Positions 1,499-33,891 of a stretch of 64,000 nt of DNA are shown here, piece after piece. This DNA is from an uncultured Candidatus Peribacteria bacterium (GTDB lineage: Bacteria; Patescibacteriota; Gracilibacteria; UBA1369; LOWO2-01-FULL-3). The DNA is taken from NCBI GenBank assembly GCA_964480115.1, contig CAYZOB010000049.1:23712-87711 (forward strand), written 5' to 3'. The translations under genes were made by a program, and so were the position numbers. How positions within the stretch are numbered: position 1 is the stretch's first letter; each line of letters opens with the position of its first letter. The notes under the pieces were generated by a model. It had not been told where the DNA came from, did no database searches, and saw nothing but the letters and a program-made list of their open reading frames with translations.

Positions 1499-4429
1499 AT
1501 GTCTCACGATAAAATAATCGTCCAGGGAGCCAGGCTGCACAATCTCAAAAATATCAATGTTGAGATCCCTAAAAATAAATTCACCGTTGTCACCGGTCTT
1601 TCCGGCTCAGGTAAATCCACGCTCGCTTTCGACACCATCTACGCCGAAGGTCAGCGCCGCTATGTGGAAAGTCTTTCCACTTACGCCCGCAACTTTCTTC
1701 AGCTCATGGAAAAGCCCGATGTGGACAACATCGAGGGCCTTTCTCCCGCTATTTCCATTGACCAAAAATCCGCGCCACGCAATCCGCGCTCTACCGTGGG
1801 TACGGTCACCGAAATTTATGATTATCTCCGTCTGCTTTTTGCGAAAATCGGTACGCCGCATTGTCCAAATTGCGGCCGTCCTATCGAACGACAGACCGCC
1901 CAGCAGATTCTCGAAGACGTTTGTTCCATGAAAGAGGGGACTAAAATTCTCATTCTTTCTCCGCTCATCAGAGATCGCAAAGGCCAGCACACCAAAGTAA
2001 TTGATAAAATAAAAAAAGAAGGCTTTGTGCGTGTGCGCGTGGATGGCGAGGTTGTTTCCGTACTGGAAGTTCCACCTATGGACGAAAATAAAAAGCACAA
2101 TATTGAGATTGTTGTAGATCGTTTGATAATCAAAGATCTTGAGAAAAAAACACAAACACTTTCCGACGGCCATGAAATAGATAGCCCAAATCCTAATCGC
2201 ACCCGTCTCGCCGATTCCATTGAAACAGCGCTAAAATTTGGTGAAGGCCTCGTAATGATTGGTGAGCATCATGAAACGAAGTCTCACAGCGAGCCTGCAA
2301 ACAAGATCTATTCCGAACATTTCGCCTGTCCCGAATGTCACATCAGTATCCCGGAAATTGCTCCCAGAAATTTTTCTTTTAATAGCCCGCACGGCGCTTG
2401 TCAGGAATGTCACGGACTCGGTACAAAGCTCGAAATCGACCCTGAATTGATTATGCCAAATCGCAACCTTACATTGGCCGAAGGAGCGATCATGCCCTGG
2501 TCTACCACCACCTCACATTTAGCCTGGTATAATCGTATTCTTGAAAGTGTGGCCCGTGCGCACAAATTTTCCATGAATGCATCAGTAAAAAAACTTTCTC
2601 CCGAAGCAATGAATATTGTACTGCATGGAGACAAGGAGCGAAAATACACTGTGGAAATCGGCAATTCCGAGCCGGATTCGGACGATGCGCCAAGCAGTGG
2701 TCATTTTACCGGTAAATATGAAACGAGCTTCGAAGGCGTAATTCCCAACTTGGAACGCCGTTTTCTGGAAACCGAATCCGACTATGTGCGTAAAAAAATC
2801 GAAGGGTACATGCGCATTCTCGAATGTCCTTCCTGCCATGGCAAACGGCTTAAGCCGGAAATTTTGGCAATAAAAATCGCCGATAGATCGATAATCGATG
2901 TGACTGAACTGTCTGTGACTAAAGCTCTTGGTTTTTTTGAAAAACTGGAACTTAGCCCGATGAAAAAAGAAATCGCCCGCCAGATTACCCAGGAAGTAGG
3001 TAATCGTCTGCGCTTTCTGGAAAATGTCGGTCTTTCTTATCTAACTTTGGACCGCACGGCGAACACGCTTTCCGGCGGTGAGGCACAACGAATTCGTCTC
3101 GCCACTCAGATTGGTTCCCGTCTTTCGGGCGTGATTTATGTTTTGGATGAACCGAGCATCGGCTTGCATCAAAATGATAATGATAAGCTAATTAAAACCC
3201 TTATCTCTTTGCGCGATCTTGGTAACACTGTAATCGTCGTGGAACATGATATTGATACCATGCTGGCTGCTGATTATATTTTGGATATTGGTCCCGGTGC
3301 CGGCAAAAACGGCGGCAATGTCGTGGCTTGTGGCACTCCTCAGGAAATCATTGAAAATCCCCAATCTCTTACCGGCAAATACCTTTCCGGCGCAGCTTCA
3401 GTGGAAATGCCCAAAAAACGTCGCAAAGGCAATGGCAAAAAACTCACTTTGATCGGCTGCACCGAACATAATCTCAAGGATGTAACTGTGGAATTTCCCC
3501 TGGGAATGTTGATCGGAGTCACCGGCGTCTCCGGCTCCGGCAAGTCTACTCTCATTAACGACATCCTCGTCAGACGTGTGTCCAAAGAAGTCTATGGTTC
3601 AAAAACTTCTCCCGGAAAGCATAAAGACCTCAAAGGAGTTGAAAATATCGATAAAATCATCAATATAGACCAGTCAGCAATTGGTCGTACTCCTCGTTCC
3701 AACCCCGCGACTTATACCGGAGTTTTCACTGATATTAGAGACATGTTTTCTCAAACTCCCGAAGCCAAACTTCGCGGCTACAAATCCGGCCGTTTCAGTT
3801 TCAATGTGAAAGGCGGCCGCTGCGAAGCCTGTGCCGGCGATGGTATCAAGAAGATTGAAATGCACTTCCTCCCGGATATTTACGTACCTTGCGAGTCCTG
3901 TAAGGGTAAAAGATACAACAACGAAGCCCTGGAAATCCGCTACAGAAACAAAAATATTCACGAAGTTCTGGAAATGACGGTGGAAGAAGCTCTCGAATTT
4001 TTCACTTCCATTCCGTCCATAAAGGTGAAGCTTCAAACCCTCCACGAAGTCGGACTCGGCTATATCCATCTTGGACAATCCGCCACTACTCTTTCCGGCG
4101 GTGAAGCCCAGCGTATCAAGCTCGCCACGGAATTATCCAAGCGTTCTACCGGCAAAACTCTTTATGTTCTGGATGAGCCGACCACCGGCTTGCACTTCGA
4201 AGACGTGAAGCGTTTGTTGAGCGTATTGCAGCAGTTGGTGGATAAGGGTAACACTGTACTCGTTATTGAGCACAATCTCGACGTAATCAAATCTGTGGAC
4301 CATATCATCGATATGGGCCCAGAAGGCGGGGACAAAGGCGGCCAAATGATCGCCAAAGGCACGCCCGAGGAGCTGATCCTGGTGAAAGAGTCTTATACGG
4401 GTGTCTGGTTGAAGAAGATGATGAGGTAG
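1499..4429 (+). CDS. uvrA: excinuclease ABC subunit A (UvrA)
   Basis: Two ABC modules (Walker [10 protein letters not shown] and GVSGSGKST; two LSGGEAQR signatures) and CxxC zinc modules. The ORF opens at 1409, but the conserved UvrA N-terminus ([19 protein letters not shown]) begins at the in-frame ATG at 1499. Confidence 0.95.
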
Positions 4430-8316: not shown

Positions 8317-9510
8317 CTATTCATCCCCACTACACTGCCGATCCAAAATTCTCTTGGAAAGCTTCAAACTATCGTTTAGAGGAGAGAAACTATTATTTAT
8401 TATCTCGAGTAAGCCATCATCGGCAATTCCCACTTGACGACCATCCAGACTGTTCAGGAATAACTCCATGCTCTGATCGGAAGCCAAACGATATAGCCCA
8501 TCAAATTCTGCTTTTAATTTGGCCGTATCCTGCTCAAATTTATAAGTGTCGTTGGCATTTTTCTTCGTCGATAAGTAATCCCTTTGGGAGAGACCACCAC
8601 CGCCGCCACCTCCACCACCGCCGCTCAGCTGCTTTTCAATAAATTTATCCGCTTCATCCAGCGCATCCTTGGGAGCCAGATCATTTACATTCACCTGCAC
8701 AATCGAGGACATATAGTCCGCAAAACTTTCATCGGTGGTAAAAAGTTCCACCGTTTTTATCGTTTTCAATTCCGTCCAAATAGAAGGACCTTTTCCGGCA
8801 GCATTGGCCGCGATCCCTTTTCCGGCTTCTTTCAGCCCCGCACCTTCACTGAAAAATTTCATGAATTCCTGCCATTTTACACCCACGCCTTCCCATGAAC
8901 TTTTTTCACAATCTATATACTGGTTTTTGCGCTCAGCATACTTATTTTCAAGATGCAGAAATAATTGATCGAAATCTTCCTGATTCAAAAAACTCCCATT
9001 TACATAGCTATCCCTCATATCGCTATATAGAACATTCCTGTCGACCATCGCCGCCTCTTTCAATAGTGCAGTTTGTGCCGCCGCCGGCAGCATTTTTTTC
9101 GAGATGATTTTCACCACATGCCTCACATAATAAATTTCCATCAATAATTTAGAATAGGCCTTTCTTAATTGGGGCACATTCTCATTGTTACAGGTCAAAA
9201 AGGCATTTCTAATCGCACTGCGTATTTTATCTTCCTGTTTTATCAGCGAATAAATATCATTGCTATGACACTGGTTTCTTACCAGCACATCATTCCACGG
9301 CTCCAGCACTCCTTCCACAAAGCCATCATTGTATATCAAACTTTTTAAAAATATCCCGAAATCAATTTCTCCTTTTGCAAAACATCTGATCACGCTCAAA
9401 TTTCCATCTTCATTATACACATTTGTGCTTTCAGCTTTGCTCACATTACTCGCCACGCTATTCAGCAAGAGCGTTAGCAATATACCAATTATGATGCTGT
9501 TTTTTTTCAT
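8317..9510 (-). CDS. exported hypothetical protein (397 aa), last gene of the giant-protein operon
   Basis: N-terminal signal peptide (MKKNSIIIGILLTLLLNSVASNVSKA), a Gly9 run and a C-terminal ...DRQCSGDE. The start overlaps the upstream stop (TAATG). Confidence 0.8.
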   Translation of the reverse strand: MKKNSIIIGILLTLLLNSVASNVSKAESTNVYNEDGNLSVIRCFAKGEIDFGIFLKSLIYNDGFVEGVLEPWNDVLVRNQCHSNDIYSLIKQEDKIRSAIRNAFLTCNNENVPQLRKAYSKLLMEIYYVRHVVKIISKKMLPAAAQTALLKEAAMVDRNVLYSDMRDSYVNGSFLNQEDFDQLFLHLENKYAERKNQYIDCEKSSWEGVGVKWQEFMKFFSEGAGLKEAGKGIAANAAGKGPSIWTELKTIKTVELFTTDESFADYMSSIVQVNVNDLAPKDALDEADKFIEKQLSGGGGGGGGGGLSQRDYLSTKKNANDTYKFEQDTAKLKAEFDGLYRLASDQSMELFLNSLDGRQVGIADDGLLEIINNSFSPLNDSLKLSKRILDRQCSGDE

Positions 9511-11363
9511 TAGTTTATGTCTGGTTTATTAAGAATTTCATCCAGAGTACCTTTGTTTATTTTCTTAAAGGTATCTTCGAAATTTTTGAATAGAGCATTC
9601 ATTTGTTTTATTTCCTGCAGTATGCTACGGGAATATACCATTCGGTTTGCCAGCTCATTACCAATCTCGTCAGACTCCACCCTTACTCCAGCCTCTGTTC
9701 CGGCAACGGCTTTCACATTGCGAATTCTATCGGCCAAATCGGATTGTCTCAATTCTCCATTGGCAATTTTTTCCTGTAATTTTAGATTAAAATTCTCAGT
9801 CAAATCCTGTCTGTCAGCGCTGTCAAAATGTAATTTATCCAACAAAGCCGGCTTATAAGTCTCGGAAAATTTATTCCATTCTTCCAATATATTCCTACCA
9901 AAAATCAGCTTATCATTCGATGGAGTGGGGATAGGATTCCAGATGGTAATAAATTGGATGTTCAATAGTGGAACGGCCACCGCCTGTTTGCATTTTGCCG
10001 ACTCCATCTCATTGCCGGTAACTTTATTTGGTATCAAAGTATGATCCAAAGTCTTTTTCAGATATTCATTTATTTTTTCCACTTCACAGAGAATGCAGCT
10101 CTCGCCCTGCATATAACCAGATAGAACTTTTTTGATAATTTTAACATCAAAGCAAACACTGGCTTTCATGGAAACGCTCTCACTGGTGTAATTTGCCGCC
10201 GCTACGCCTCCACCATCAATGAAATTTTCAACGGCTCCTCCGAGACTGTCAAATCCCTGCTCACCTATGCCGGCAAACACTCCGGGCTCATCCACGCCGG
10301 AACACCATCGTTTTTCCCATTTATCAATGGGTGCCGGAGCGATAGGTAAAGCTGGAGCGATAGCAGCTGGAGCAGTGGCGGCAGCTGGAGCAGTGGCCGT
10401 TTTATCTCCATTGCCATCACCACCATTTTCATCCACACCACCCACACCACCCCCATCACCATTGCCACTTTTCTTATCTCCGCTCTTCTTATTGCCATTT
10501 TTCGCGGCATAATCATTCAAAGCACTGGTCAATGGATCATTTGGAGCACATATGTCCTCATCCAGAACTTCCGCCGCCACTTTTTGATCTCCTCCAATAT
10601 CAATCAAGCCCTTGATACCACCAGGAGCATCAGTTTTCCCGCCGCCATCAGCACTATTTTTCTCATCGCCCAAAGGCAGGAAAGCTACGCCAAACTGATT
10701 ATCATTTGGTACGTTGGAATTTAGCAGTAAAGTTTTTTCATCCAGTGTTGGCTTAAAAGGCGAAGTATAGGCATCTTGATATAACCCACCAATTGTCACC
10801 GGAGATTTTTTCAGAAAAAGCACATCTTCAATCAATGCAAGATCATACACAAGATCAAATCCAGAATCATTCAAGTCATTATTGGCAAACATCTCCGCGG
10901 GTTTGACCTGCGTATCCAACTCGTTTTGAATTTGATAAAGCTCACTTAAATCGGCAAAATTTCTTTGCACTTTACTCATAACTTTCGCCGCATCCTCCTG
11001 GGACATTGTCGGATGTTTGGAAGAATTCAAAATCGGGGTCAAGCTGCCATTTACCACCAGTCGCGCCTGATCCACTGTCATGCCATTATTATTTGCAACT
11101 TCTTGCAGCGCACTTTTGCCGGAATCACTGGTTATTTTTTTATAAATCAGATTATATAGATTTTTGCCCTTCTTTGTAGCATCCGTAGGGCTGAAAATAC
11201 TTTTCCAGTCAAATGAGTTATTATCAATCCAGGAAACTGTGGTATTCCACCAGCCGGTATCACTTTCACCATGCGCCACCTGGTTGTTATCCACATAAAT
11301 CAATCCCGTGGATGTACCCACTCCCAGCATTAAACCTATAATGATTGGTAAGAATTTTTTCAT
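9510..11363 (-). CDS. exported hypothetical protein (617 aa) with a G/A/P-rich linker
   Basis: Signal peptide MKKFLPIIIGLMLGVGTSTG. A central low-complexity stretch (GDGGGVGGVDENGGDGNGDKTATAPAAATAPAAIAPALPIAPAP) is followed by a Cys-containing C-terminal domain. Confidence 0.8.
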   Translation of the reverse strand: MKKFLPIIIGLMLGVGTSTGLIYVDNNQVAHGESDTGWWNTTVSWIDNNSFDWKSIFSPTDATKKGKNLYNLIYKKITSDSGKSALQEVANNNGMTVDQARLVVNGSLTPILNSSKHPTMSQEDAAKVMSKVQRNFADLSELYQIQNELDTQVKPAEMFANNDLNDSGFDLVYDLALIEDVLFLKKSPVTIGGLYQDAYTSPFKPTLDEKTLLLNSNVPNDNQFGVAFLPLGDEKNSADGGGKTDAPGGIKGLIDIGGDQKVAAEVLDEDICAPNDPLTSALNDYAAKNGNKKSGDKKSGNGDGGGVGGVDENGGDGNGDKTATAPAAATAPAAIAPALPIAPAPIDKWEKRWCSGVDEPGVFAGIGEQGFDSLGGAVENFIDGGGVAAANYTSESVSMKASVCFDVKIIKKVLSGYMQGESCILCEVEKINEYLKKTLDHTLIPNKVTGNEMESAKCKQAVAVPLLNIQFITIWNPIPTPSNDKLIFGRNILEEWNKFSETYKPALLDKLHFDSADRQDLTENFNLKLQEKIANGELRQSDLADRIRNVKAVAGTEAGVRVESDEIGNELANRMVYSRSILQEIKQMNALFKNFEDTFKKINKGTLDEILNKPDIN

Positions 11364-11364
11364 A

Positions 11365-12051
11365 TTATTGACACTGACTGGTAGATGCGTCTACAAAGCG
11401 CACCGGAAATTCGGCCGCACGCAAACGTATATCTTTCAAAACTGATTTGTATTTTGTTAGCTGGTATAAAATTTCCTGGTACTTTATATGCATCGGGTAG
11501 GCCAGACGAAATTCGTTATAAGCGGAAACAGTAGCCTCCATCACGGCTTTTGCCTCCTGAGATTCTTGAATTGTAAGCTGAGCCCTTTGTTTAAGTATAG
11601 CCGAAAGTTGGCTTGCTGAAGGCATTTGACTGAAGTTGAAATCGGGATTTTTTTGCAAATAATCCAGCCTTTTCAAATAATCAGAGTACCTGCTCAGTGC
11701 TTCGATTGATAAGCAATAGCTGCTCAAATTTTGCTCCCCGCATTTTTGCAGAATGGTAGGAATATCGTCTTGGTCCAGCAGATTGTAAGGCGGCAGAAAC
11801 AGCTTTTTCTTCTCGGCATTCTGATAAAAATCCGGCTCGCTCACGAGCTCAATCAATTTTTCTATTTTTGCGTTAAAAAGATCATTCATTTCACCGTGAT
11901 AGCCACTGAAAGCCGTCAAGTAACTGCCAGCTGTTCTGAAATCTATTCTCGTTTCACCTTCGGCATAGATGGTATAGCCTCCATAGACGAACATAACAGT
12001 CAGCACGGCTGTAAAAAAAGTAACGAAAATTTGTTTCAAAAGTCTCATCAT
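11365..12051 (-). CDS. signal-anchored hypothetical protein (about 228 aa)
   Basis: The ORF extends to 12066, but the ATG at 12049-12051 forms an ATGA overlap with the upstream stop and yields MMRLLKQIFVTFFTAVLTVMFVYGG. Helical body, C-terminal ...STSQCQ. Confidence 0.7.
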   Translation of the reverse strand: MMRLLKQIFVTFFTAVLTVMFVYGGYTIYAEGETRIDFRTAGSYLTAFSGYHGEMNDLFNAKIEKLIELVSEPDFYQNAEKKKLFLPPYNLLDQDDIPTILQKCGEQNLSSYCLSIEALSRYSDYLKRLDYLQKNPDFNFSQMPSASQLSAILKQRAQLTIQESQEAKAVMEATVSAYNEFRLAYPMHIKYQEILYQLTKYKSVLKDIRLRAAEFPVRFVDASTSQCQ

Positions 12052-12647
12052 CCTGAAGTTATGCATTGTTTTAGAAAGCCCGGAAAAACATTTTTAAAAG
12101 CTGAGAAATATCCAAACATCTGTGAAATCGTCATGTTTAAATCTCTAAGTTGATTGTTTATCGCCTGATATTTTTCCAGCATTATGGTCGCGGTTTTTGT
12201 AGCGTTGGTTTGCTTTATATGATCAAATAAAAGCTTTTTTCCTGCTGAGTAATATTCTTCCAGCAGCGCGGAACATAAGCCAAAAGCGGCATTCGTGGCG
12301 GCTATGTTTGCCTGTTCACTATCAAAATTCAACCTGTCAAAAAGATTCTCAATATTAACCTTGAATTCATTGTAACGGGCTATCGCCAGATTGGTGAGCG
12401 AACTCGTACTGCTCTTATTCTGAAAAGTTTGATTCAGGAAATCCAGAAATTCTTTCAGCTCAATATCCATCAGCGGAACCAGGGTACTTTGACATTCACT
12501 GGACGGCGTATTATTCAATTTTCTCATCAATTGAGCTTTAACTTTTTCTTGAGCGCCGGCCTCGCCGGCCTCTCCGGCTGCCACCGCGACCAATGAGTGC
12601 GTCAGCAATACGCATATAACCCCGATTACAATTAAACATTTTTTCAT
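12048..12647 (-). CDS. exported hypothetical protein (199 aa)
   Basis: Signal peptide MKKCLIVIGVICVLLTHSLVAVAAG, helical body, C-terminal ...FLKQCITSG. There is a 1-nt gap to the giant gene stop. Confidence 0.75.
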   Translation of the reverse strand: MKKCLIVIGVICVLLTHSLVAVAAGEAGEAGAQEKVKAQLMRKLNNTPSSECQSTLVPLMDIELKEFLDFLNQTFQNKSSTSSLTNLAIARYNEFKVNIENLFDRLNFDSEQANIAATNAAFGLCSALLEEYYSAGKKLLFDHIKQTNATKTATIMLEKYQAINNQLRDLNMTISQMFGYFSAFKNVFPGFLKQCITSG

Positions 12648-12648: not shown

Positions 12649-15600
12649 TTACTTGGTTATTGTTTGAATTTGCACCTCGTTACCTTTGGTGAAGATATAA
12701 GTTTTATCATTCGGTTTTATTTCATAATACTGTGGATAATACTTGGCAACAACGGGGAAAAAGACGTCTCCCGGAATTAAATCAGCTTTGTGCGTAAAGG
12801 TGGAAATACATGGACAGGCATTACATTCCGCGGGTACCAAATACAATCCCGGAACGCTCTGATTTTTACAGCTGTTCAATTTATCGTCATCCTTTTGATT
12901 GAGAGGATCACCACAATCTTCGACTTCCTTGCCATCATTTTTGCTTCCACCATCGGTATCGGGATTATATGGATCGGTGTGGTAAATATTTGTTTCCTCA
13001 TAGTTCGAAAGTCCATCCTGATCCTCGTCTATTGCATCATCAACCGGATCCAGAGGGTTTGTATGCATTGCAATCTCTTTTCCATCCTTCACTCCTCCCT
13101 GGTCGCTATCGGCATCTAAAGGATTCAAATTGTTGGTACATTCCTGCGAATTACTAAGTCCATCCTGATCCGGATCGGCTTTGGCATCGGTTATCTTATA
13201 TTTTGCCGCGCAATAATCCGTCAAGCCATCATTATTTGTATCCTGCTCGAAACAGTTATAGATGTCGAGTACCCGTTGCACCATTACCAATAATTCTCCG
13301 AAATTCATTAATTTAGCCGGATTTTTAGCCTCTTCTTCCGTGATAACAAAGTTGTTTTTTATTGGCTTACCACTTTTCAAATATGGCGTCAGATTTCTGG
13401 CGGCTTGCAAATAATCACCATACCACGGATCACCTTCTTTCAAGGAACTCATGTCGATAATCCCACGATATTCTAAAGCTTTGAGAATAATTTTTATCGC
13501 TTCGGCTCTCGTGATATTATTTTCCGGCTTGAAAGGTGATAGCCCCGAGTCATTTTTTTCTCCCTTGTAGCCATCAATAAATTGCAATAGTGTAGCTTCT
13601 TTAATATCCGGATGATAGTCACCAAGCAGCGCATTATCCGTATATCCACTACCGGAGACAAACGCTTTGTACGCTTCTTCACGTGGAATTACACAAATCA
13701 TTTTCAGCAGAACTTTTACGAAATCTTTTCTCTTTACCAGATCCTCCTGGGTGAATTTAAAGCTTGGATCAATGACATAATTTGCCGCATCGGGTCCTTT
13801 TGAAATAGCCAGCGATCCATTCAGTACACCCGCCGAAGGTTTGCGCGGACTCATCTGCGGTACATCATTTGCACCGATGATAGTCGCCGGTTTCAAAAGC
13901 GCCACATAGATTTCTCCTACAGTTTTACCGGCAAAATTAACATTTATAATCAAAGGATCATTCGCGTGGTCATTTATTTTTTGCGCTATAGTTAGCCGCT
14001 TATCAAAAATTACAACATTGCCTGAGCTATCAACAGAGGCCAGAACTTTATTTTCCGCAACATTCTTTAGCACGGCTCCACCGGGATTATCCGCGTCATT
14101 GGCCGGTAATTTTTCAAAAATAAAATCATCACTTTTATCCAAATCATCGATATTCACTCCCTTCAAATCCCCCATGTTTTCAGCCACAAAGCCAAAGTTC
14201 TGGTAAATATTTACATCACTGTTAGCATCGGCAACCATATATATAGTACCCAGAACTTGATCATTTTTATCTTTAATTTCTAAATTTGTTGGTGTATTGG
14301 GCGGGATAGCCTCATTGATAACCGCTTTGTAGCCATCTTCTATCGCACCAATATTGCCGGTCTTCGGATTAATCTCCGCCACCACTTCACCGTCGGCATT
14401 TTCCACCAAAATCATATCATCGAGGATTAAATCCCTTATAAAATATCCTCCACCGGCTTCGGTAAAGGCCTCTTTCAGCTTATCAATTCTTGGCACCAGC
14501 TTCAGCTGCCCATTAATCACTCTGGAAATATAGCGACTGCGCATTAACCAGAAAGGCAGCTCTGGAGTCTTTGGCTCCGTAGTGCCGGTCGCCTCGCCGG
14601 TAGCGGCAAAAGATTCATCAAGAGAAATAGCCGGCGCTATAACGTGAATGGTAATTTCTATACTGGAGTTTTTGCCGGAAGCATCGACCACATGCAGTAG
14701 GAATTTATGATCTCCAATGTCTCCCTCATTTTCAAAAGGGCCAATGTTAAAGTGTGAATTGGTCTTATCATTAAATGGGAAGCCATCTCCATCTTCATCA
14801 ATCAAAACAGTCACGTCGCTGCCCAGAATTTTTGGCATTGGCGTAATCTTTAATTTATCGCCCGTATTCGGATCGCTCTGACTACTTTCATATGGCATTC
14901 TTTCCAGATAATACTGCTCTATTTTACCATCAGGATCAAAAGATCCGCCGGCATCGATTTCCAGATTTTGGAAAATGGAAATTGTATATTCGGTGGAATT
15001 TATCACCGGCATCGGCGACTCGTTATCCGCGCAGGATTGAGGAGCGGCGATGACTGTATCGGAAATCAGCGATTTTTCATCATTGGAATTCACGGCGAAA
15101 ACATTGACGTAATAATTGCCATTTGGGACATTCTCGGAAATTCTTGGTGAATTTTTATCACTCAAAGCACTGACGATTACCTTGAAATTATAGGCGGCAT
15201 TTTCTATGTCATCATAAATTGATTTTCGCAGCACAATTTCATAGCTTACCGCGCCTTCGACAGGCAACCAGCTAATATCAAATTTACCCGTGCTGATAGC
15301 CGGAACTGCCAGACCATCCACGGCAATACCTCCCTTGTTTACAAAATCTCCCACCGCATTATTCGTTAAGCCTATAATCAACTCGCCTTCCGGCAATTTG
15401 AGATTGTTGGCCGGATTATAATTAGTCTTCAAATAAATATCTCCACCGGTGGAATATACAATGTCATAATCCTGATCATGATCCACGTCGCTGAAGAGAA
15501 TATTGGTTTTACCTTTCAGTTCCTTGGTGTAATTGAGCACATTTTCACTAACAGTGCCGGCGCTTACATAGAATCCTATTGGTGGCGGAGTAGGTGCATT

Positions 15601-18600
15601 TGCATTGTCTACGATATCCTGCGGCGAGAAATTAATGGCGGCGGCGATCAAATCACGTTTGCCTGATAAATCAGCATTTTCAGCAGCCTGCTTGATGGCA
15701 CTCTCAACTTCTTTGCCAAGGAAACTAAAGGCTAAAGTTTTGCCGACCTCTCCCACATTACTTCCGGTCACATCATTTGCACTCGGGTTTGCGGCAATCA
15801 AATCGACTCGCTGTGAATTATTATCAACTAAAATTTTTCCGAATTCATTGTAATCGTCTATTTCTTTCAGAACTCCATCGGTAGCTTTCAAACCTTTGGT
15901 ATAAGCGATCATCTGATCTCTTAAGGCAGCCATTTGCAACAAACCCGAAGAATTCGGCAGATTTTCATATTTAATGGCATTTTCAATTTCCGCAAGACTT
16001 CGATTCAAAAGTGGATTACTTGAGTCGATAAACTTTTGCGTGGCAACAAGATTGTAAGTATCAGGCCCCTTGTTTTTTTCCAGCTCCGCGACATATTGAT
16101 TCATTTCCACCCGGATATTTTCCATCTGGAAATTTTCCATCTGGATATTTTCAAAGCTCAAAGGCTTATCCAATTTCTTCTGCACACCATTTTGAGCCTT
16201 ATCTATTAAAGTCTGAATATACTTATTGACAATTTGGCCATATGGCAGAGAAGTATACTTATTAATGTTTCCGATAAATCCGGCCACGCCGTCATTCCAA
16301 ATTTTCGCACCCTTGTCGGCAGCCACATAGATAAAATTAGTATCAATAGTGAAGTTCAATTTACCATTAATTCTAATCTGATCCACATAGCTGTACTCAA
16401 TGGGTGGGAACTGCACACCCAGATTTTTTACAATTGGCAGTACCACTTGAACATTTGGTTGAGTCATTGTTTCAATTTCTGTCTCAAGCAATGTTTCCGG
16501 AATAAACAATTGACCATTTTTCAATAAGCACAAGATTTTGAAAATAAATTTCAAATTAGTCATGAATTTACCCACGAAATTTGGTAATGCCGGAATCTTT
16601 GGTGGCTTCGGTAAATCCGGCAATTGCGGCAAAGGTATCTGGGGCAGATCTGGTAAATTCGGCAAACTGAAATCCGGAAATTTAGGTATATCAATCTGAA
16701 AATCAAGCTTTCCACCAGTAAGGGCATCCAAATCGAAATTCAAATCCACCGGCAATACATCGGGCAGATTTATATCCGGCAAATTCGGCAAAATTATTGG
16801 CTCCGGCCTGAAAACCACATCCGGCCATATTATCGTTACGCCGGTCTTTATTTGTGAAAAATCCACTACGACATCAGGCAACTTTGGCAGGGGAATAATT
16901 GGAATATCCGGAATCACGGCAAAGAGTTGCAGCAAAAGTCCGAGCTTGCTGAAGCGATCATTCTTACATTTATCACAGGACTGCTGATACTCCGTCACCG
17001 TATCCATGATTATCTTCCACTGTTTGAAAGTGCGAATGGTATCGCGAATAGCTTTGGTCCATGATTCAACAATCTTTTGCTGACGGTTAATATAGCCGCC
17101 GGTATACTGCATTATCGCATCCAGATAACAAATAATCTGCGTCGCATATTTAGCCTCCACATTTCTCCAATGCAAAATATCTTTTGGTAAATTGGCTATT
17201 TTATCCAGGGCATCCATAAATTTTCTCACCGAATTAATCAATGTCTGCATGTCCACCGTAATCGCATCACAAAAAGTCTGGCGATTTTCATTTTTCTCAC
17301 AATCCCAAAGCTTATATTTCTGTAATTCACTTTCCATATGCTTAATCCAGGCATCAGCTTGATACTTGTATTTGGCTATTTCTTTTGGCGAAATGGCCGG
17401 AATTTTAATGATTATTTCTTTACCTTCCAGTTTTACAAATGGAAAATTACTTAGGCTGGTGGCAAAATCATTGAACCCTCTGAAGCTGAATTGTTGTGCT
17501 GCCAATTTGCTTTCCTGACCCACCCTGGAAAAATCCGGCAATACGAAATAGAAAGTGGGGAAGCGTAATAATTTTGTATATATTTCATCAATTTCACCAT
17601 CCAGCCAATTGGTGACCACGCTTGGGAATCCCGGCACTTTAACATTTACTTTTGAAGTTGCAGAAATCGGATCACGGGCATTGCCCCAGCTACCGCCGGT
17701 ATCCACGCCTTTAGCGCCACCTGCACCCTGACCGTCTATGATTGCAGCCGATTGACCGGTTTCCACATTCACCACTGCTTTACTCGCAGCTGAAATCACC
17801 CCATGAACAGCCTGCTTTACCGCCGCACACACTCCGGGTATTCCACCGGGAACTGAAAAGGCAAAACATCCGCCGACACCGTTTGGTCCTGCGCACGCTG
17901 CACCACCCAATCCTAAAGTTGTTGTGGGAGAGATGTAAAATCTGAAAAACGAATTTGTACCAATGGAAGGTGCAAATGGTAGAACATATGGAGGATAAGG
18001 CACGATACTCACCGCCGGCAATCCAGGAATAGCCCCATCCTGAGCCAATAAAGCATAATTATAGGGAATTGGCAGACAACCGCCTCCCGAGCAGCGCAAG
18101 TTTGATAAGGTATTTTCTATTCCTGTAGCTAAAGCCTCACCACTGCTTTGCGCGGTTATCAAAATATCACTCCATTTATCCGCACAGCCGTTATAGTCTT
18201 TATCTTGATTTTGGCTGGCGGCAAACTTTTTGAGCATGGCAGCCATCTCCGGTGATACCTCCCCTTTGGCACTTGCTGCGATTATCTCGCTTGGAGACGG
18301 CAACCCCAATTTTGCAAAAGTATCATCCACGGCATTGCTGGAATTATCCGCCGGAGTCGTCTCGAATTTCTCATATTTCTCTGATTCTACGGAATAAAGA
18401 TAAGTAATTATTCCATCAGGATTCACTTCCGGCCTGATCATAATATCGCCATAAAGATCGTTGTTAGATGGATCATCCTTATTCGCCGTATATTGGACGA
18501 AATTATTGCCAAGCTCGAAATGAATTTTCGGCACCAGATTCACAATCATTTTATAGCTGATAATTCTTTGTCCGCCAGCCGGCACGCTGATATTTTTAAT

Positions 18601-27109: not shown

Positions 27110-27808
27110 TCATTTCAGGCTTTCCAAACGTGCTTTTAGTAAAAATATCGTATCCGTTCGCAATTTAGCTCTTGCCCAATCCTTTTGCGGTTCGCTAAGC
27201 AGTTCACCCAGACCGTTAAGAATATTTCTGTTACTCATTTTTGCAAGTTGATCCAGGCATTTCTCCAGCAGTTTTTTCATAGACAGTTCGGCTCGCTGCT
27301 TGATAAGATCGGCATTAATTGGCCAATCTTTGTCAAGAAAAAACCACAAATCATAAATATCACGACTTGTTTTTCCAATCCGTTCATTCATTGCCATCAA
27401 CTTGTTTGCAAACATATCCTCCTGAACCATGACCAGCATCGAAACACCAAGATGATTTTTAAGTACATAATTAGAGGTAGACCCATGTTGATTTATCTCA
27501 ATCTTGATCTGTTTTTTTCCGCTCCCATATGAGAGCACGCACAAGAGATTAAACCGCTTATCCGCAATGTCTTTTATTGTTCCATATTCTTTTGCAATTT
27601 GCTCTATTCTTTTGAAAACAACATCTTTTTTTTCAGGATTAAGCAGGTCAAAATCCAGATCGACCGAAAAACGACTCAGATTATAGAATATCATGGCTGC
27701 CGTACCTCCTTTAAAGCCCAAGAAAGGGGCAATCGAAACATCAGAATAGATATCCTTCAGGATACGGAACATTTTATTTTTATGTATCGCGGTATCAAAA
27801 GCCTCCAT
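27110..27808 (-). CDS. abiEii: AbiEii/AbiGii-family nucleotidyltransferase toxin (type IV TA)
   Basis: FKGGTAAMIFYNLSRFSVDLDFDL matches the characteristic GGTAL...RFSxDLDF nucleotidyltransferase motif. Size is 232 aa. It sits 3 nt downstream of the AbiEi-like gene. Confidence 0.8.
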   Translation of the reverse strand: MEAFDTAIHKNKMFRILKDIYSDVSIAPFLGFKGGTAAMIFYNLSRFSVDLDFDLLNPEKKDVVFKRIEQIAKEYGTIKDIADKRFNLLCVLSYGSGKKQIKIEINQHGSTSNYVLKNHLGVSMLVMVQEDMFANKLMAMNERIGKTSRDIYDLWFFLDKDWPINADLIKQRAELSMKKLLEKCLDQLAKMSNRNILNGLGELLSEPQKDWARAKLRTDTIFLLKARLESLK

Positions 27809-27811
27809 GTG

Positions 27812-28423
27812 TTATGCGTTATTTTTTTGATATTCAGAAAGCAATTTCACCCTTTTTTCCATGCGCTTCTTATCATATATCGGCAAAATTTCAAACACCT
27901 TATCCCAATTCAGTGAGTTTAAATTGTCAAAATGATATTCTTTATTGATATAAATTGTGTCTAGAAATGCACGTTCCGGAGTAGCGACAGACGTTTGATC
28001 TTTAAATTCAATACCTGCATTATTTGTTAAAATTGAATCCTTCATTTTTTTGTAAGCATAAATTTGTTCACCTATTACCAATTCCCTGGTCTGATACGAA
28101 GCTAAAAATATTTGGCTGTAAAATTGAAAATTAATACCCGCTTCTATCAGCACGGTTTCAAAACTTATATATGATGGAGTCAAAATTCTGGTTGAAAGCT
28201 CTTGTTTATTATAATTTTTGTCCTTGGCATAAATCCCTCTGCGAATACGATATAGTTCACCAATTTTTACATAATAATTAATTTTACTCACTACTGATTT
28301 CTTATTATCCGAACCCCAGATGAGGCAAACATCTTTAAAAGTAAAAACCGTCTTGTCTGATCTTAGTAACTTGGAAATTGGCTTTCCTGTTTCATTCATA
28401 AGCTGAACATTAGAATAATTCAA
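27812..28423 (-). CDS. abiEi: AbiEi-family antitoxin / transcriptional regulator
   Basis: The size, its position directly upstream of abiEii, and the AbiEi_4-like segment (KIGELYRIRRGIYA) support the call. The ORF-track start at 28423 is TTG; an in-frame ATG lies at 28399. Confidence 0.65.
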   Translation of the reverse strand: MNYSNVQLMNETGKPISKLLRSDKTVFTFKDVCLIWGSDNKKSVVSKINYYVKIGELYRIRRGIYAKDKNYNKQELSTRILTPSYISFETVLIEAGINFQFYSQIFLASYQTRELVIGEQIYAYKKMKDSILTNNAGIEFKDQTSVATPERAFLDTIYINKEYHFDNLNSLNWDKVFEILPIYDKKRMEKRVKLLSEYQKNNA

Positions 28424-28530
28424 ACCTTTAGCTCACTATATGCGATTTGCACTGAATATGCAAGCAGCAGTCTTTTCATACCATGCAGGACTTAGACTAA
28501 TAATACCCATTTATGGCCATTAATGGTTCA

Positions 28531-28573
28531 AATTATTTTATATTCACAATTGACCGTCGACGGTCAATTGAAT
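28531..28573 (-). promoter_or_regulatory. 43-bp repeat copy 1: 24-bp perfect palindrome plus promoter-like hexamers, upstream of abiEi
   Basis: aattattttatattcacaattgaccgtcgacggtcaattgaat. The palindrome CAATTGACCGTCGACGGTCAATTG spans 28547-28570. On the minus strand, TTGACC in the palindrome is followed about 19 nt later by TATAAA. Confidence 0.6.
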
Positions 28574-28663
28574 CACTTCAATCTCTTCAGAGCCGGACGT
28601 CCTAAAATTGACCTCATCTGATCAATAGCTATTTGATTCATTAGCAGGATTATCAGCTTTCTC

Positions 28664-29665
28664 CTATTCCAAAAGCCTCTTAATTTCCTGTTCTAGCTCG
28701 TATTTTTTTGGTAAATACAGCTGATATTTTGAAACAAAAAGCTTGTTAGAAATACCACCAAGGGCATACTGAACAGCAATGTGTTCTTTTTCTGCTGATA
28801 AAATGATGCCAATTGGATCGTTATCATTTTTTGTATTCTCTTCGCTTTTAAAATAGTTTAAATACATATTCATTTGGCCGATATCTCCATGATCAATTTC
28901 ACCAATTTTTAAATCAATGATTACGAAACATTTCAGAATCCTATGGTAAAAAACAAGATCAGCATAAAAATGCCGATTATTAATTGTCATTCGAAATTGT
29001 CTTTGAACGAAAGTAAATCCCTTACCTAATTCCAAAATAAACATCTGTAAATTATCAATTATTTTTTGTTCCAGTTCTTTTTCGGAATATTTATAGTTTT
29101 CAGCAATTCCTAAAAATTCGAGAACATATGGCTCTCTGATGATGTCTTGTGGAATTTCTATGATTTCCCCTTGCTTAGAAAGTCTTAGAACTCCTTTCTT
29201 GTCTTTACTTAAGGCTATCCTTTCAAAAAGCATAGAATTTTTCTGTCTTTTAAGTTCACGAATTGACCACTTCTCCTTGATACACTGTTGCTCATAGAAA
29301 CTACGCGCCAGATCATAATCTACTTTTAAAAGTTCAAAATAGTGACTCCATCCCAACTGGTGAGACACTGTCTCACCAATTGGGTATTTTATATAAAAAA
29401 GGCGCATGTAGGTAAGATTGCTTTTGCTAAACCCCTTTCCGTAGCAAGATAATCCTCTTGATAGCTTATTGAGTATTTTACTGCCATATTCAGAAGTGAA
29501 TTTCCCTTTTTGTTCAAATTTCACGATCCTTTTGCCAATTTCCCAGTAAGTTTGAACTAAAATATGGTTTACAGATTTGTAAGCTTTTTTTTTACCCTCT
29601 TCAAAAATCGACCCGATATCTTGAATCAGGTATTTATAGTCTTTTTGTGAATAAAGTTTTGTCAT
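28664..29665 (-). CDS. DUF1016 / YhcG-type PDDEXK nuclease-domain protein
   Basis: The N-terminal helical region (VNHILVQTYWEIGKRIV ... WSHYFELLKV) and the C-terminal PD-(D/E)xK-like core (FYADLVFYHRILKCFVIIDLKIGEIDHGDIGQMNMYLNYF) are typical of the family. The ORF-track start at 29686 is TTG; the ATG at 29665 is preferred. Confidence 0.8.
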   Translation of the reverse strand: MTKLYSQKDYKYLIQDIGSIFEEGKKKAYKSVNHILVQTYWEIGKRIVKFEQKGKFTSEYGSKILNKLSRGLSCYGKGFSKSNLTYMRLFYIKYPIGETVSHQLGWSHYFELLKVDYDLARSFYEQQCIKEKWSIRELKRQKNSMLFERIALSKDKKGVLRLSKQGEIIEIPQDIIREPYVLEFLGIAENYKYSEKELEQKIIDNLQMFILELGKGFTFVQRQFRMTINNRHFYADLVFYHRILKCFVIIDLKIGEIDHGDIGQMNMYLNYFKSEENTKNDNDPIGIILSAEKEHIAVQYALGGISNKLFVSKYQLYLPKKYELEQEIKRLLE

Positions 29666-29762
29666 TGCAATCTGTATAGCAGACAAATCTAAAATTTTCT
29701 TAAAATAAATCTAAAATTTTTCTAAAATTCTTAAAACCCAGGCTCTCCTGCATGAAAACATG

Positions 29763-29975: not shown

Positions 29976-30521
29976 TTACTGCACGTTAACAAGCAAGCAA
30001 TAAGCTGGCCCATCAGCAGCAGGAACAGCTCCTGGAGTCAGGGCGGGAACCGCAGATGCTTTGACATTCTTACACCCTATATTCGCATTATCTATACTTT
30101 CAACAGCTGCAAACACTGCCGCCGTAAATTTCAGTCCTGCCGCGTATTTAACATATCCATATTGACCTGTACATGAGGGGTTGCTGCCTGTTGTCACATT
30201 AGCTGTCTTTGGATCTACCGGAAAAGTTCCACCAAAATCAGAAACGTTTGTACTAATTAAATTGCCAATAGTACCAGCTGCACCAGTAGAATCAATACAC
30301 GTAATCGTACTCACACCTCCGGGCAAACTAACTCCTGTCAATGATTTATTTAACAAAAATCCGGTAATCTTATTTACTTGAGCCACCCTTTGCGTATCCC
30401 TGGCTTTCTGAGGCGCACCAAGCAGGCTTGGCAAGAACGCCACGGCCAATACCGCGATAATAGCGATTACAATTAATAACTCGATCAGGGTGAAACCCTT
30501 TTTAGCATTCAGACTTTTCAT
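29976..30521 (-). CDS. type IV pilin (prepilin with N-terminal methylation motif)
   Basis: MKSLNAKKGFTLIELLIVIAIIAVLAVAF is a classic G/FTLIEL class III signal with a hydrophobic alpha1 helix. The globular part has four Cys. The ORF extension to 30713 has no support. Confidence 0.9.
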   Translation of the reverse strand: MKSLNAKKGFTLIELLIVIAIIAVLAVAFLPSLLGAPQKARDTQRVAQVNKITGFLLNKSLTGVSLPGGVSTITCIDSTGAAGTIGNLISTNVSDFGGTFPVDPKTANVTTGSNPSCTGQYGYVKYAAGLKFTAAVFAAVESIDNANIGCKNVKASAVPALTPGAVPAADGPAYCLLVNVQ

Positions 30522-30755
30522 AGAAAAAAATTTAAGGAAATTACTATCGACAATATTACCCCTGATCAAAAAAAAGACAAGCGATTTTAGAAATTTGTAC
30601 CACATCCTGCCATGGCTTGACACTGATATTTTGCTTCCAGATTGCCGATTTTTCCACCGGCGCCAAAAGAGTTTTTTGCAAAGGTAATGCTGAGGCATCA
30701 TGAACACGTCCAAATTTCACATTCAATGGCAAATTTGGACGCATCACAACACCAC

Positions 30756-32009
30756 CTACAAGTTCGAACTCAAACTCGTCAGCTTCATGATCGGCAGCAT
30801 CACGGCCGCCACCACCGTGCCTACGGTCATACCGATCACGATCAGGATAATAGGTTCAATAATCTTGGAAATTCCGGATACCGCCGTGTCCACTTCATCC
30901 TCGTAAAACTTGGCCACCTTCGCTGTAATCTCGTCCAGTTGCGCCGTTTTTTCACCCACATCGATCATATTCACCAGCATCGGTGGAAAAAGATCACTGC
31001 CACTCAGGTTTTCCGCCAGGGGAATACCCTGCTTGATGTCCTCAGAGGAGGATAAAAGTCTCTTTTTATAGACCTCGTTGCCGATTGAATTCGCCGTAAT
31101 TTCCAGCGTCCTTACTATCGACACATTACTATCCAATAAATTACTTAACGATCTTGCAAATCTGGCCAGATAAGCTTCTTTAAACAAATTACCGAATACC
31201 GGTAGTCTCAATTTCAAATTATCCAAAGCGTATTTTCCCATTTCGGTCTTTTTGAAAAATGAAAAGAAAATGAAAATTGCCACCACGCCCAATAAAAGCA
31301 AAAATCCATGATTGATCATAAAATTACTGATTCCCACTACGATCTTAGTCACCAAAGGTAAATCTCCTTTCGCCGCCGCAAATAATTCCGTCAACTTTGG
31401 AATTACGAAAATCATCAGGCCGCTCACTACCAAAATCAGCAAAACAAAAATTACCACCGGATACATCAGCGCGCTTTTTACCTTCGCAGTAATGGCATAA
31501 GCTTTCTCGGCATCCAGAGCCAGATTTTCCAATACTCTGCTCAGCTGTCCGGAAGCTTCGCCGGATTCCACCATGCCGATTTCCGGCTCCGTAAAAACTT
31601 TTTTGTAATCAGACATGGACACCGATAAGCTACTGCCGGACTCGATTTTTTTGGCCAAATCCACCACGACCATCTTCAGGCGCGGACTGTTTTCCATCTG
31701 CTGTGCCAGAGATTTTAGCGACATTACCATCGGAATTCCCGAATTGATCATCACCGATAAAAGATGCAAAAAAGTCGCTTTATCCTTCACTTTTACTCCC
31801 GATTGAGAGAGAAAGTAATTATTGACCTTCTTGTACCAATTCACGAGCATATTTCCGCTCACCACCCTCTCATCCAGACCGCTTTTATCCAGAATCACCG
31901 CCGCCTTTTCTTCCTGAATATTGAGCACGACATGTTCATTGGACAATTTCTGTCCATCGAGCTGAAAGGCCTCGGTCCCCATTGTGGCAAAATCTTTTTC
32001 GTTTGGCAT
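30756..32009 (-). CDS. pilC: type IV pilus platform protein PilC (GspF family)
   Basis: Two GspF-type repeats with three TM segments, about 400 aa, adjacent to the GspE-family ATPase. Confidence 0.85.
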   Translation of the reverse strand: MPNEKDFATMGTEAFQLDGQKLSNEHVVLNIQEEKAAVILDKSGLDERVVSGNMLVNWYKKVNNYFLSQSGVKVKDKATFLHLLSVMINSGIPMVMSLKSLAQQMENSPRLKMVVVDLAKKIESGSSLSVSMSDYKKVFTEPEIGMVESGEASGQLSRVLENLALDAEKAYAITAKVKSALMYPVVIFVLLILVVSGLMIFVIPKLTELFAAAKGDLPLVTKIVVGISNFMINHGFLLLLGVVAIFIFFSFFKKTEMGKYALDNLKLRLPVFGNLFKEAYLARFARSLSNLLDSNVSIVRTLEITANSIGNEVYKKRLLSSSEDIKQGIPLAENLSGSDLFPPMLVNMIDVGEKTAQLDEITAKVAKFYEDEVDTAVSGISKIIEPIILIVIGMTVGTVVAAVMLPIMKLTSLSSNL

Positions 32010-32029
32010 ATTGATTTAAAACAATTTTT

Positions 32030-33271
32030 TTAAGATTTACGCGCTACACGGTATACCTCATCCAGAGTGGTAACGCCCTGTAAAGCTTTGATAATTCCGG
32101 CTTGCTCCAGCGTCACCATGCCATTTTTCAAAGCGGCTTCTTCAATATCCAGCATGCTGGCGCTGCTGCCGACTAATTTCCTTAATTCATTATTCATCCG
32201 AAATACTTCGTACAAGCCCACGCGACCGAGATATCCCACATTGCCACATTCCACGCAGCCTACGGCTTGATAGAATTGCATTCCTGTCAATAAAGCCGGA
32301 TCTATTTCTCCCTCGGTATGCAGCCTGGACATTGCTCTCTTCACCAATTCCAAAAGTTCCGGTGAAGTTTCTACCTGTTTTTTACATTTTTCACATACTT
32401 TTCTCACCAACCTCTGAGCGATGATTAGTTCAAGCGTGGAATTTAATAAATAAGGCTCAATGCCCATGTTTATCAGACGGGTGATCGATTCCACGGCACT
32501 ATTCGTATGCAGAGTGGAGAAAACCAGATGTCCCGTAAGTGAAGCCTCAATAGCGGTATTGGCCGTTTCTTTGTCACGAATTTCTCCCACCATTATGATG
32601 TTTGGATCCTGACGTAGCGCCGTCCTCATGCCGGAAGCAAAATCATAATTAATGTCGTGATGAACCTGGCTTTGATTCAGTCCGTCCAGCTGGATTTCCA
32701 CCGGATCCTCAATTGTAAGAATATTTACATCCATCGTATTTAATCTGGTCAGGCAGGAATACAGTGTAGTCGTCTTACCTGAACCTGTCGGACCGGTATT
32801 GATGAGAATTCCATTTGGAGATTTCATCGCCGCTTCCAGATTTCTCAAGGAAGCGCCGGAAATTCCCAATTCCATCAAATCCGGAATTTTTCTGGATTTA
32901 TCCTGAATACGCATAACAATCTTTTCCCCATTTACCGTAGGCAATGTGGAGACACGCAGATCCATCCCGCGACCATCCTTCGTCGTCACATCCGCTCTAC
33001 CGTCTTGTGGTAATCTTTGTTCATCAATCTTTAAATTCGACATGATTTTCAATCTCGAAACCACCGCCGGATGCAGATTTGTGGGATATTCAACGATTTT
33101 TCGCAAAACACCATCCACGCGATAACGGATTCTCACATAGTGCTGCAAGGGTTCAATATGAATATCACTTGAACGCAGATCCAAAGCATAGCTGATAGCG
33201 ACGAGTACCATTTGCGGAATATTCGCGGCCAGAATGCTGTCCTCCAGTTGTTTTTGTTTTTCTTCGTTCAT
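32030..33271 (-). CDS. pilB: type IV pilus assembly ATPase (GspE/PilB family)
   Basis: Walker A GPTGSGKTT, Asp box and His box. The tetracysteine motif (CEKCKK ... CVECGNVGY) is typical of PilB/GspE rather than PilT. The N-terminal region is short. Confidence 0.85.
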   Translation of the reverse strand: MNEEKQKQLEDSILAANIPQMVLVAISYALDLRSSDIHIEPLQHYVRIRYRVDGVLRKIVEYPTNLHPAVVSRLKIMSNLKIDEQRLPQDGRADVTTKDGRGMDLRVSTLPTVNGEKIVMRIQDKSRKIPDLMELGISGASLRNLEAAMKSPNGILINTGPTGSGKTTTLYSCLTRLNTMDVNILTIEDPVEIQLDGLNQSQVHHDINYDFASGMRTALRQDPNIIMVGEIRDKETANTAIEASLTGHLVFSTLHTNSAVESITRLINMGIEPYLLNSTLELIIAQRLVRKVCEKCKKQVETSPELLELVKRAMSRLHTEGEIDPALLTGMQFYQAVGCVECGNVGYLGRVGLYEVFRMNNELRKLVGSSASMLDIEEAALKNGMVTLEQAGIIKALQGVTTLDEVYRVARKS

Positions 33272-33889
33272 TTATTTTTGAAAATAAGCGTTTATCTGCA
33301 CCGAGAAACTGATGATGTCTGAAGCACCCTCCCCATCACTGTTATTCTGAAAATTTAATCTTACCGAAGACATATCCATCAGGCGCACATTGTCTTTCAG
33401 GCTTCCGGAACTCTCCACCATGTGCATGAATTTAGTGAAATTTTCTTTGGAACTGCGAATACTCATTCTCAAAGGTAAAATTGCATATGTTTCAGCCTGA
33501 ATTGGCGTCTGGTAGTCAATATTGGCGATTTCAAAAGGATTGCTTTTTGTGGAAAGCTGTACTTCGTAAGCATCAATTTGTCTTGTAAGATTAGTGTAGT
33601 CATCCGTTGCCGGAAAAATTACTTTAAGTTTTTGCTCAACTTCTTTATTTAATTGGTTGGCGGCGAGTTTCTTATCCTCAAGTTCGATTTTTTCTTTGCT
33701 CACATCTCTGCGCAAATCAGCAATAAAGGCTTTGTTCTGAGCCACACCCTGAATAGCCATCCGGTATTGATTCCATTTGTTAAATATGTAAAAACCCGCA
33801 GACAAAAGCAAAATAAGACATAGCACCGCATAGATACGCACATGCAATTTCTGTAATCTTTCCTCTTCCTGATAATTGTGATCTGCCAT
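33272..33889 (-). CDS. PilO-like bitopic pilus-alignment protein (putative)
   Basis: The architecture is a short cytoplasmic N-terminus, one TM, a coiled coil and then an alpha/beta C-domain. It abuts pilB with a 0-nt gap. Confidence 0.45.
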   Translation of the reverse strand: MADHNYQEEERLQKLHVRIYAVLCLILLLSAGFYIFNKWNQYRMAIQGVAQNKAFIADLRRDVSKEKIELEDKKLAANQLNKEVEQKLKVIFPATDDYTNLTRQIDAYEVQLSTKSNPFEIANIDYQTPIQAETYAILPLRMSIRSSKENFTKFMHMVESSGSLKDNVRLMDMSSVRLNFQNNSDGEGASDIISFSVQINAYFQK

Positions 33890-33891
33890 TT

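Follow-up and report, generated by a model that had tools for sequence, protein, structure and literature searches.

A conserved, non-repetitive core module in a giant surface protein of Candidatus Peribacteria and related lineages

Results

We examined a 64,000-nucleotide stretch of DNA (the window) from an uncultured Candidatus Peribacteria bacterium (contig CAYZOB010000049.1, positions 23,712 to 87,711 of the forward strand; GenBank assembly GCA_964480115.1). On its minus strand, at positions 12649 to 27003, lies an open reading frame (ORF) for a giant protein of 4784 amino acids (aa) with a signal-like segment at the N-terminus. Pfam and NCBIfam matches are confined to its flanks, with Ig-like (residues 1665-1855), FG-GAP (2477-2540) and DUF11 (2736-2777) domains on one side and a TSP3 repeat at residue 4661 on the other; in many homologues an SLH domain (PF00395) is also annotated. 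Residues 2955-3575, encoded at 16279-18141 on the minus strand, are covered by none of the Pfam or NCBIfam domains after which homologues are named in databases (FG-GAP/VCBS, DUF11 or Big/Invasin). This conserved module of ~620 aa is the subject of this report, and was the unit used for alignment A2 and for the first AlphaFold model.

The original prediction had singled out three consecutive segments in the middle of the protein, at window positions 16580-18120, as unassignable. All three fall within the giant ORF, at residues ~2961-3474, and both their placement and their character are borne out. Segment 1 (RCSGGGC...GVCAAV) corresponds to residues 2970-3062; segment 2 contains LWDCEKNENRQTFCD at residues 3232-3246 and YQQSCDKCKNDRF at residues 3339-3351; and segment 3 is a leucine-proline ladder at residues 3403-3476. 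A 93-aa interval at segment 1 has both the highest content of Gly, Pro and Cys in the protein (36.6% versus 13.5% overall) and the lowest content of charged residues (3.2% versus 24%). Proline reaches its maximum in a 114-aa interval at segment 3 (21.9% versus 5.0% overall), where 20 of 25 prolines are preceded by Leu, Ile, Val or Phe and 13 Pro-Pro pairs are spaced three residues apart (shuffle p = 5e-05). These compositions are far from chance.

The same prediction held that the segments match no recognised adhesin domain, and every search agreed. Pfam, queried with the whole protein and with 51 module sequences, and NCBIfam, queried with the whole protein, gave no meaningful match over the module. 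PHROGs returned nothing for the module or for four accessory proteins encoded next to the giant gene (see below), and PDB sequence-profile searches with alignments A2 and A3 recovered generic helical bundles only, at E values of at least 0.04. Foldseek searches of the PDB with two AlphaFold models gave best E values of 0.76 and 3.0, and a search of BFVD with the first model gave 0.19. As modelled, the fold is new within the PDB and BFVD, and we found no description of this module in the literature. What is new would be a non-repetitive module of ~620 aa for which neither Pfam, the PDB nor BFVD yielded a detectable relative, set within a known kind of protein, the giant surface fibre of Candidate Phyla Radiation (CPR) bacteria.

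As predicted, the module is built of several parts, all on the minus strand. It opens with a low-charge β-domain rich in Gly, Pro and Cys (residues 2965-3065; 17809-18111), which has five near-invariant cysteines (2971, 2976, 3037, 3046 and 3059) and the motifs C-x4-C-LPIPxN and FRxYxSPTxT. A poorly conserved Gly/Ser/Ala-rich linker (residues 3066-3123; 17635-17808) is followed by an α/β subdomain (PGFPSVxTNWLD...IKIPAIS; residues 3124-3205; 17389-17634), with indel hot spots at 3164 and 3173, that starts the core recovered class-wide at E ~1e-100. Next comes a helical rod (16966-17388) composed of helices H1 (3206-3233), H2 (3239-3270) and H3 (3272-3343) and ending in C3343-x-x-C3346. Residues 3347-3402 (16798-16965) hold a short hydrophobic helix (LGLLLQLFAV), the motif IPxPPIIPLPKxPD and a β-hairpin, and form the sequence-conservation peak of the whole protein. 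They lead into proline tract 1 (residues 3403-3420; 16744-16797), made of [LI]-P-x triplets, a variable loop that is mostly deleted in homologues (3421-3440; 16684-16743), and proline tract 2 (LPxLPDLPxLPLPxLPDLPxPPKIPxLP; 3441-3474; 16582-16683), which is amphipathic with a period of three residues. The module closes with a Lys-faced amphipathic helix, H4 (3475-3496; 16516-16581), bearing the 99% conserved Cys3492, and a C-terminal α/β part (IPE...TEIETLTQP; 3497-3575; 16279-16515) with invariant E3503 and T3514. A 97-codon ORF on the plus strand (16234-16527) lies entirely within the coding region of the module; it shows no sign of being a gene, and the strand opposite to it is under strong protein-level constraint.

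The original prediction had proposed checking related genomes for conservation of the segment, and there it proved to be the best-conserved part of the protein and not variable filler. A word-indexed search starting from residues 2930-3500 yielded 242 proteins, which come from metagenome genomes of Peregrinibacteria, Peribacteria and "Gracilibacteria" and show 31-74% identity over ~99% of the query; almost all of those listed are 3600-5900 aa long, the others being shorter and partly partial records. Across 119 homologues, conservation in the giant protein is highest in the module, with 59% mean identity at residues 3301-3400 versus 9-55% elsewhere outside the module, and eleven module cysteines are conserved at 92-100%. 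Further peaks are found at residues 101-300 (window 26100-26700; 47-49% mean identity), an N-terminal domain without a family match, and at residues 2401-2600 (19200-19800; 52-55%) in the FG-GAP region.

Conservation extends to length. Among 83 class-wide sequences, with identities as low as 25%, none departs from an H3 of exactly 72 residues, and 82 have an H4 of 22 residues. The stretch 3344-3402 measures 57-62 residues, tract 2 measures 29-39 (median 32) and tract 1 mostly 16-18; indels are limited to a few loops, and the key Pro, Leu and Cys columns of the alignment are invariant. One divergent family (loci L078 and L079; genomes G147 and G214) carries an insertion of ~200-250 aa in the H1-H2 loop that is Glu/Lys/Ala-rich and coiled-coil-like, and has lost several module cysteines while retaining the 72-residue helix and the proline tracts.

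The class of ultrasmall CPR bacteria to which this one belongs comprises Peregrinibacteria and Peribacteria together with TGA-recoded lineages of the Gracilibacteria/Absconditabacteria type, and its characterised members are obligate episymbionts or predators. An exhaustive profile search recovered 538 cluster representatives at E values up to 1e-3; the 150 listed are mostly proteins of several thousand residues, and the shorter ones are fragment-like. We found the module once in its own genome, once each in 63 of the 64 genomes sampled from the same order, in 291 of 401 genomes of the class, and in none of 376 sampled genomes from the rest of the phylum. It is absent or nearly absent from three families of the class (3/64, 0/12 and 0/8). 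The giant protein forms one orthologous family that spans most of the class and, within the order, is matched once per genome. The source records of three homologues (locus L005, proteins P0090 and P0136) assign them to Nitrospirota, Pseudomonadota and Taylorbacteria; because restriction to the class is otherwise strict, these are probably mis-binned contigs.

In many members of the class the match contains between 1 and 23 in-frame TGA codons, as follows from the reading of TGA as glycine (table 25) that is known from Gracilibacteria and Absconditabacteria. Translation with code 25 yields orthologous ORFs of 4120 and 4182 aa in two recoded genomes (G417:C1:835653-848012 and G736:C1:90460-103005; loci L120, L123, L125 and L126), both of which keep the Gly/Pro/Cys domain (GCGFGGGxC ... 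FRLYxTPTxTG ... AACFG ... GGNC). Such giant ORFs appear under table 25 only, and gene callers that apply table 11 would break them up, a possible source of some of the short database matches. We also considered whether the module exists as a stand-alone protein and rejected this: short matches are few and mostly labelled partial or located on contigs of ~2-3 kb, and one that was looked up begins at a contig end.

Two structure predictions were made. The first AlphaFold model, from 51 order-level sequences of residues 2955-3575, had a mean predicted local distance difference test score (pLDDT) of 65.6 and a predicted template modelling score (pTM) of 0.43. In it segment 1 is folded as a small domain of β-strands (pLDDT about 80), followed by a linker predicted to be disordered at 3071-3127 (pLDDT below 50). 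For the second model (m5c22c5a87d7f; 83 diverse sequences), 44 divergent sequences were added, 22 of them translated with code 25, and the target was cut to residues 3118-3575, giving pLDDT 79.9 and pTM 0.65. This model shows an α/β subdomain at 3128-3203, the three rod helices at pLDDT 85-96, a β-hairpin at 3377-3402, helices at 3475-3496 (pLDDT ~80-85) and 3503-3514, and a small α/β end; the proline tracts, at pLDDT 63-85, are without regular secondary structure. Given these scores, residues 3118-3575 are predicted to form one coherent unit and not beads on a string. The helices have an amphipathic periodicity of 100-105 degrees, and the proline tracts follow a strict hydrophobic-Pro-polar repeat of period three.

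The module's cysteines are evidently more than incidental. Cys occupies each of the positions 3343, 3346 and 3492 in 82 of the 83 class-wide sequences. The pair C3235/C3245 in the H1-H2 loop is present either as two cysteines or as none, and so a local disulfide between them is likely. C3292 is 88% conserved and, when replaced, is mostly Asp or Glu (6 of 10). Elsewhere in the giant protein, lone conserved cysteines occur at 3991, 4437 and 4584 (96-98%), and a motif ECNxCPC near the C-terminus (residues 4727-4732; window 12808-12825) is kept in 93% of homologues.

Within the order, the giant gene has near-constant neighbours. Immediately downstream, on the minus strand, are four tightly packed genes (8317-12647) for exported proteins of 199, 233, 617 and 397 aa without a known family. 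All four keep synteny with the giant gene throughout the order, and in two further families the first three also follow it; homologues of these accessory genes were not detected beside the giant gene in the recoded lineages. For the 199-, 233- and 397-aa proteins, 93-95% of orthologues keep a cysteine at 2-5 residues from the C-terminal end (PGFLxxC(I/L)T, STSQCQ and DRQC, respectively), the first two proteins have exactly three conserved cysteines each, and the 617-aa protein has a conserved CxxC (C423/C426). By sequence pattern, these cysteines suggest intermolecular disulfides in a complex.

Upstream of the giant gene, and on the same strand, is a type IV pilus block (29976-35154) consisting of a 420-aa gene, a 205-aa gene, a T2SSE-family ATPase gene (PilB/PilT-like), a T2SSF-family gene (PilC-like) and a prepilin-type gene. 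In that order, and followed by the giant gene and the four exported proteins, they are kept in essentially every same-order locus with enough flanking sequence (L001-L067); in the present stretch, the pilin gene and the giant gene are separated by an inserted AbiEii/AbiEi pair and a YhcG nuclease gene (27110-29686). That type IV pili are functionally linked to the giant protein throughout the class was nevertheless rejected: adjacency holds across the order, but five genomes belonging to other families of the class lack it, their PilC-like genes lying 11-460 kb away or on the opposite strand.

Discussion

Taken together, these observations fit best with the three segments being parts of a single folded, extracellular core module of ~620 aa that acts as a stiff rod of fixed length, or as a hub, in a surface fibre, a reading to which we give a probability of roughly one half. 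From the N-terminal side, the chain would run through a disulfide-stapled Gly/Pro-rich β-domain, a floppy linker and the α/β subdomain into the helical rod, whose third helix, 72 residues or about 108 Å long, ends in the CxxC. It would then return by way of the short hydrophobic helix, the β-hairpin and the two amphipathic [Leu/Ile]-Pro-x tracts, ending in the Lys-faced amphipathic helix with its near-invariant cysteine. We propose that the proline tracts adopt a polyproline-II (PPII) structure and run alongside the helices, Leu/Pro faces turned inward, because they match the helices in length and are amphipathic with period three. At 3.1 Å per residue tract 2 would span ~99-105 Å, close to the ~108 Å of H3, and tract 1 ~50-56 Å, close to the 43-48 Å of H1 and H2; both matches are calculated from lengths. 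The result would be a stiff α/PPII rod, designed on the same principle as the antigen I/II stalk of streptococci, joining a distal adhesive half (Ig-like, FG-GAP and DUF11) to a proximal half that carries TSP3 here and SLH in many homologues. Its hydrophobic and extremely conserved faces would be buried either within the module or in an assembly interface, through self-association or docking of the exported proteins encoded in the same operon. Such a hub or assembly role, like any redox function of the module, is something that we infer.

Several observations weigh against this interpretation. The packing of PPII strands on helices is deduced from lengths and period-three amphipathicity, and not from contacts or buried surfaces in the model. 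Foldseek searches of the PDB returned no antigen I/II structure, or other α/PPII structure, among their results. For the proline tracts, the measured periodicity of hydrophobicity has its maximum at 130-135 degrees and not exactly at the 120 degrees of a three-residue repeat. In the second model the short hydrophobic helix at 3353-3362 has low confidence (pLDDT about 57-67), which would also fit a segment that is buried only in a complex, or one that is mobile. Finally, a purely structural role accounts poorly for a CxxC and a third cysteine that are 99% conserved.

An alternative could coexist with the rod, although as the main function of the module we consider it unlikely: the CxxC and Cys3492 could form the functional centre of a thiol switch, a covalent docking site or a metal site. 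Disulfide formation or exchange might lock and release a helix, or capture accessory proteins by their C-terminal cysteines; alternatively, the cysteines could bind metal. C3343, C3346 and C3492 make up an odd-numbered trio, as do the conserved cysteines of the two smallest accessory proteins, and both the C-terminal cysteines of the three accessory proteins and the acidic replacements at C3292 are in keeping with such a function. However, the accessory genes are not detected beside the giant gene in the recoded lineages, and C3991, C4437 and C4584 are equally possible partners. C3292 and C3343 are 51 residues apart on one straight helix of the model and therefore could not share a site. No thioredoxin, DsbA or zinc-ribbon family was matched in Pfam or NCBIfam. 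In thioredoxin-fold oxidoreductases the CxxC is located at the N-terminus of a helix, whereas here the motif is found at the C-terminal end of a 72-residue helix, the wrong end for that fold, and no such fold was found; we therefore rejected a thioredoxin-like CxxC. The original prediction had also raised the idea of a covalent-crosslink element. In the form of a thioester or isopeptide domain this finds no support, as no TED or CnaB-type domain is among the Pfam results for the whole protein and the module sequences, but it survives as the thiol-based hypothesis just described.

More doubtful still is a role in the membrane of a host cell, in which the Cys-bounded hydrophobic loops, rich in Gly, Ala and Pro, would act as internal fusion loops and the helices with their proline tether as a spring, inserting during episymbiotic or predatory attachment. 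The extreme conservation of the module in a lineage with characterised predators, whose giant surface proteins have been proposed to contact hosts (PMC8080830), is compatible with this, as are the low confidence of helix 3353-3362 and the fact that segment 1 is the least charged part of the protein. The "hydrophobic core" of the original prediction holds true relative to the rest of the protein: Kyte-Doolittle analysis flags solely the N-terminal signal-like segment and residues 3351-3373, and after that N-terminal signal the four segments nearest to membrane competence, out of five, are all in the module. None of them is competent, however. Summed Hessa ΔG values for the module candidates are +6.2, +6.9, +7.1 and +7.5 kcal/mol, compared with +3.5 kcal/mol for the N-terminal segment, and no stretch of at least ~19 residues in the module has an insertion free energy near or below 0. 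The two segments with the highest family-mean hydropathy (1.57-1.65 on the Kyte-Doolittle scale in a 19-residue span) are interrupted by three Pro and one Asp (3354-3372) or by four Lys on one helical face (3476-3494), and distant homologues have Arg, Lys, Glu and Asp inside both.

The membrane-inserting, fusion or pore-forming element that had been envisaged is thus not supported by these energies and charges, and it is further weakened by the structure predictions, in which segment 1 is a folded β-domain and residues 3475-3496 form a well-scored helix. Foldseek against the PDB and BFVD gave no match with E below 0.1 to a pore-forming toxin (α or β type) or to a class I-III fusogen fold, viral or cellular. 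The module also lies mid-chain, far from the N-terminal end. Spontaneous insertion of the module into a membrane is unlikely on this evidence.

A combination of the last two ideas can be imagined, which we view as a long shot. In such a redox-triggered spring a labile disulfide between the CxxC and Cys3492 would hold the Lys-faced helix and the proline tether on the 108-Å helix, and thiol exchange on host contact would free them, and with them the Cys-bounded hydrophobic loops rich in Gly and Pro, so that they could engage the host envelope or bind accessory proteins covalently. Class I fusion subunits of gammaretroviruses and deltaretroviruses are triggered by thiol isomerisation in a CXXC / CX6CC system, and the module resembles them conceptually in its Gly/Ala-rich hydrophobic loops, long helices and conserved CxxC with an extra cysteine. 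Unlike those subunits, it is part of a bacterial protein of ~4800 residues, has neither a transmembrane anchor nor a membrane-competent peptide, and shows no detected structural or sequence similarity to them. If true, the spring would be a bacterial analogue of viral fusion machines triggered by disulfide isomerisation, and the key host-attack element of the class, in Peregrinibacteria and TGA-recoded lineages alike.

A transmembrane hairpin, in which 3354-3372 and 3476-3494 would cross the cytoplasmic membrane with the proline tract as a cytoplasmic loop and the flanks outside, is formally compatible with extracellular flanks and places both hydropathy peaks in the bilayer, but it is very improbable given Hessa energies of +6.2 and +7.1 kcal/mol, an apolar run (LGLLLQLFAV) of only ~12 residues that is followed by P-D-P-P (IPDxPIIPLPKLPD), lysines at about one per turn in the second segment, charges within both segments of distant homologues, and a helix at 3475-3496 that is modelled within a single unit. 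With a single membrane pass, the cytoplasm would hold the FN3-like and TSP3 part and, in homologues, the SLH domains. Because of the energies, the short apolar run, the charges and these misplaced flanks, a transmembrane role was rejected.

The core module that we favour as a rod or hub belongs to a kind of protein that has been noted before. "Large, Cys-rich extracellular proteins" were reported in Peribacteria (Anantharaman 2016, PMC4736985), Peregrinibacteria are enriched in huge uncharacterised proteins (PMC11573180), and in the predator Vampirococcus giant surface proteins were proposed to mediate host contact (Moreira 2021, PMC8080830). Like these, and like giant fibrillar or RTX-type adhesins, the present family has four to six thousand residues, a signal peptide, arrays of Ig-like, FG-GAP and DUF11 domains, a TSP3 calcium repeat and, in many homologues, SLH wall anchors, and attachment to a host is a proposed function. 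Such proteins are described as variable repeat arrays, whereas here the most conserved part is a non-repetitive core of ~620 aa without a known domain, and the family is shared as orthologues throughout a class, matched once per genome in the order. The module is thus a marker of the lineage and a concrete place at which to study how surface fibres are built or used, and residues 3124-3575 offer a defined, expressible target for structural and biochemical work.

With proline-rich envelope spacers, such as the Pro-Glu/Pro-Lys region of TonB and the wall-spanning segments of Gram-positive proteins, the module shares extended PPII-prone segments in an envelope protein. Those spacers are charged, poorly conserved and variable in length, unlike the tracts described here, which present a hydrophobic [LI]-P-x face, are nearly invariant and, in the case of tract 2, measure 29-39 residues.

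The closest parallel in design is the stalk of antigen I/II (SpaP/SspB) of oral streptococci, in which an α-helical A-region is reportedly wrapped by a polyproline-II P-region. Membership of that family was rejected: no antigen I/II Pfam domain (Strep_SA_rep, GbpC or C-terminal AgI/II) was found on the whole protein or on the 51 module sequences, and there is no sequence or Foldseek relationship. The module also lacks Ala-rich 82-aa repeats, a V domain between the arms, isopeptide C-domains and LPXTG, and its rod would consist of three helices with disulfides and a CxxC cap, embedded mid-chain. What the two share is a long α-helix followed by period-three proline tracts of matching extended length, in what would be a rigid stalk within a large surface protein of Gram-positive type. 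Should the α/PPII rod prove real, this way of building a stalk would have a second, independent example.

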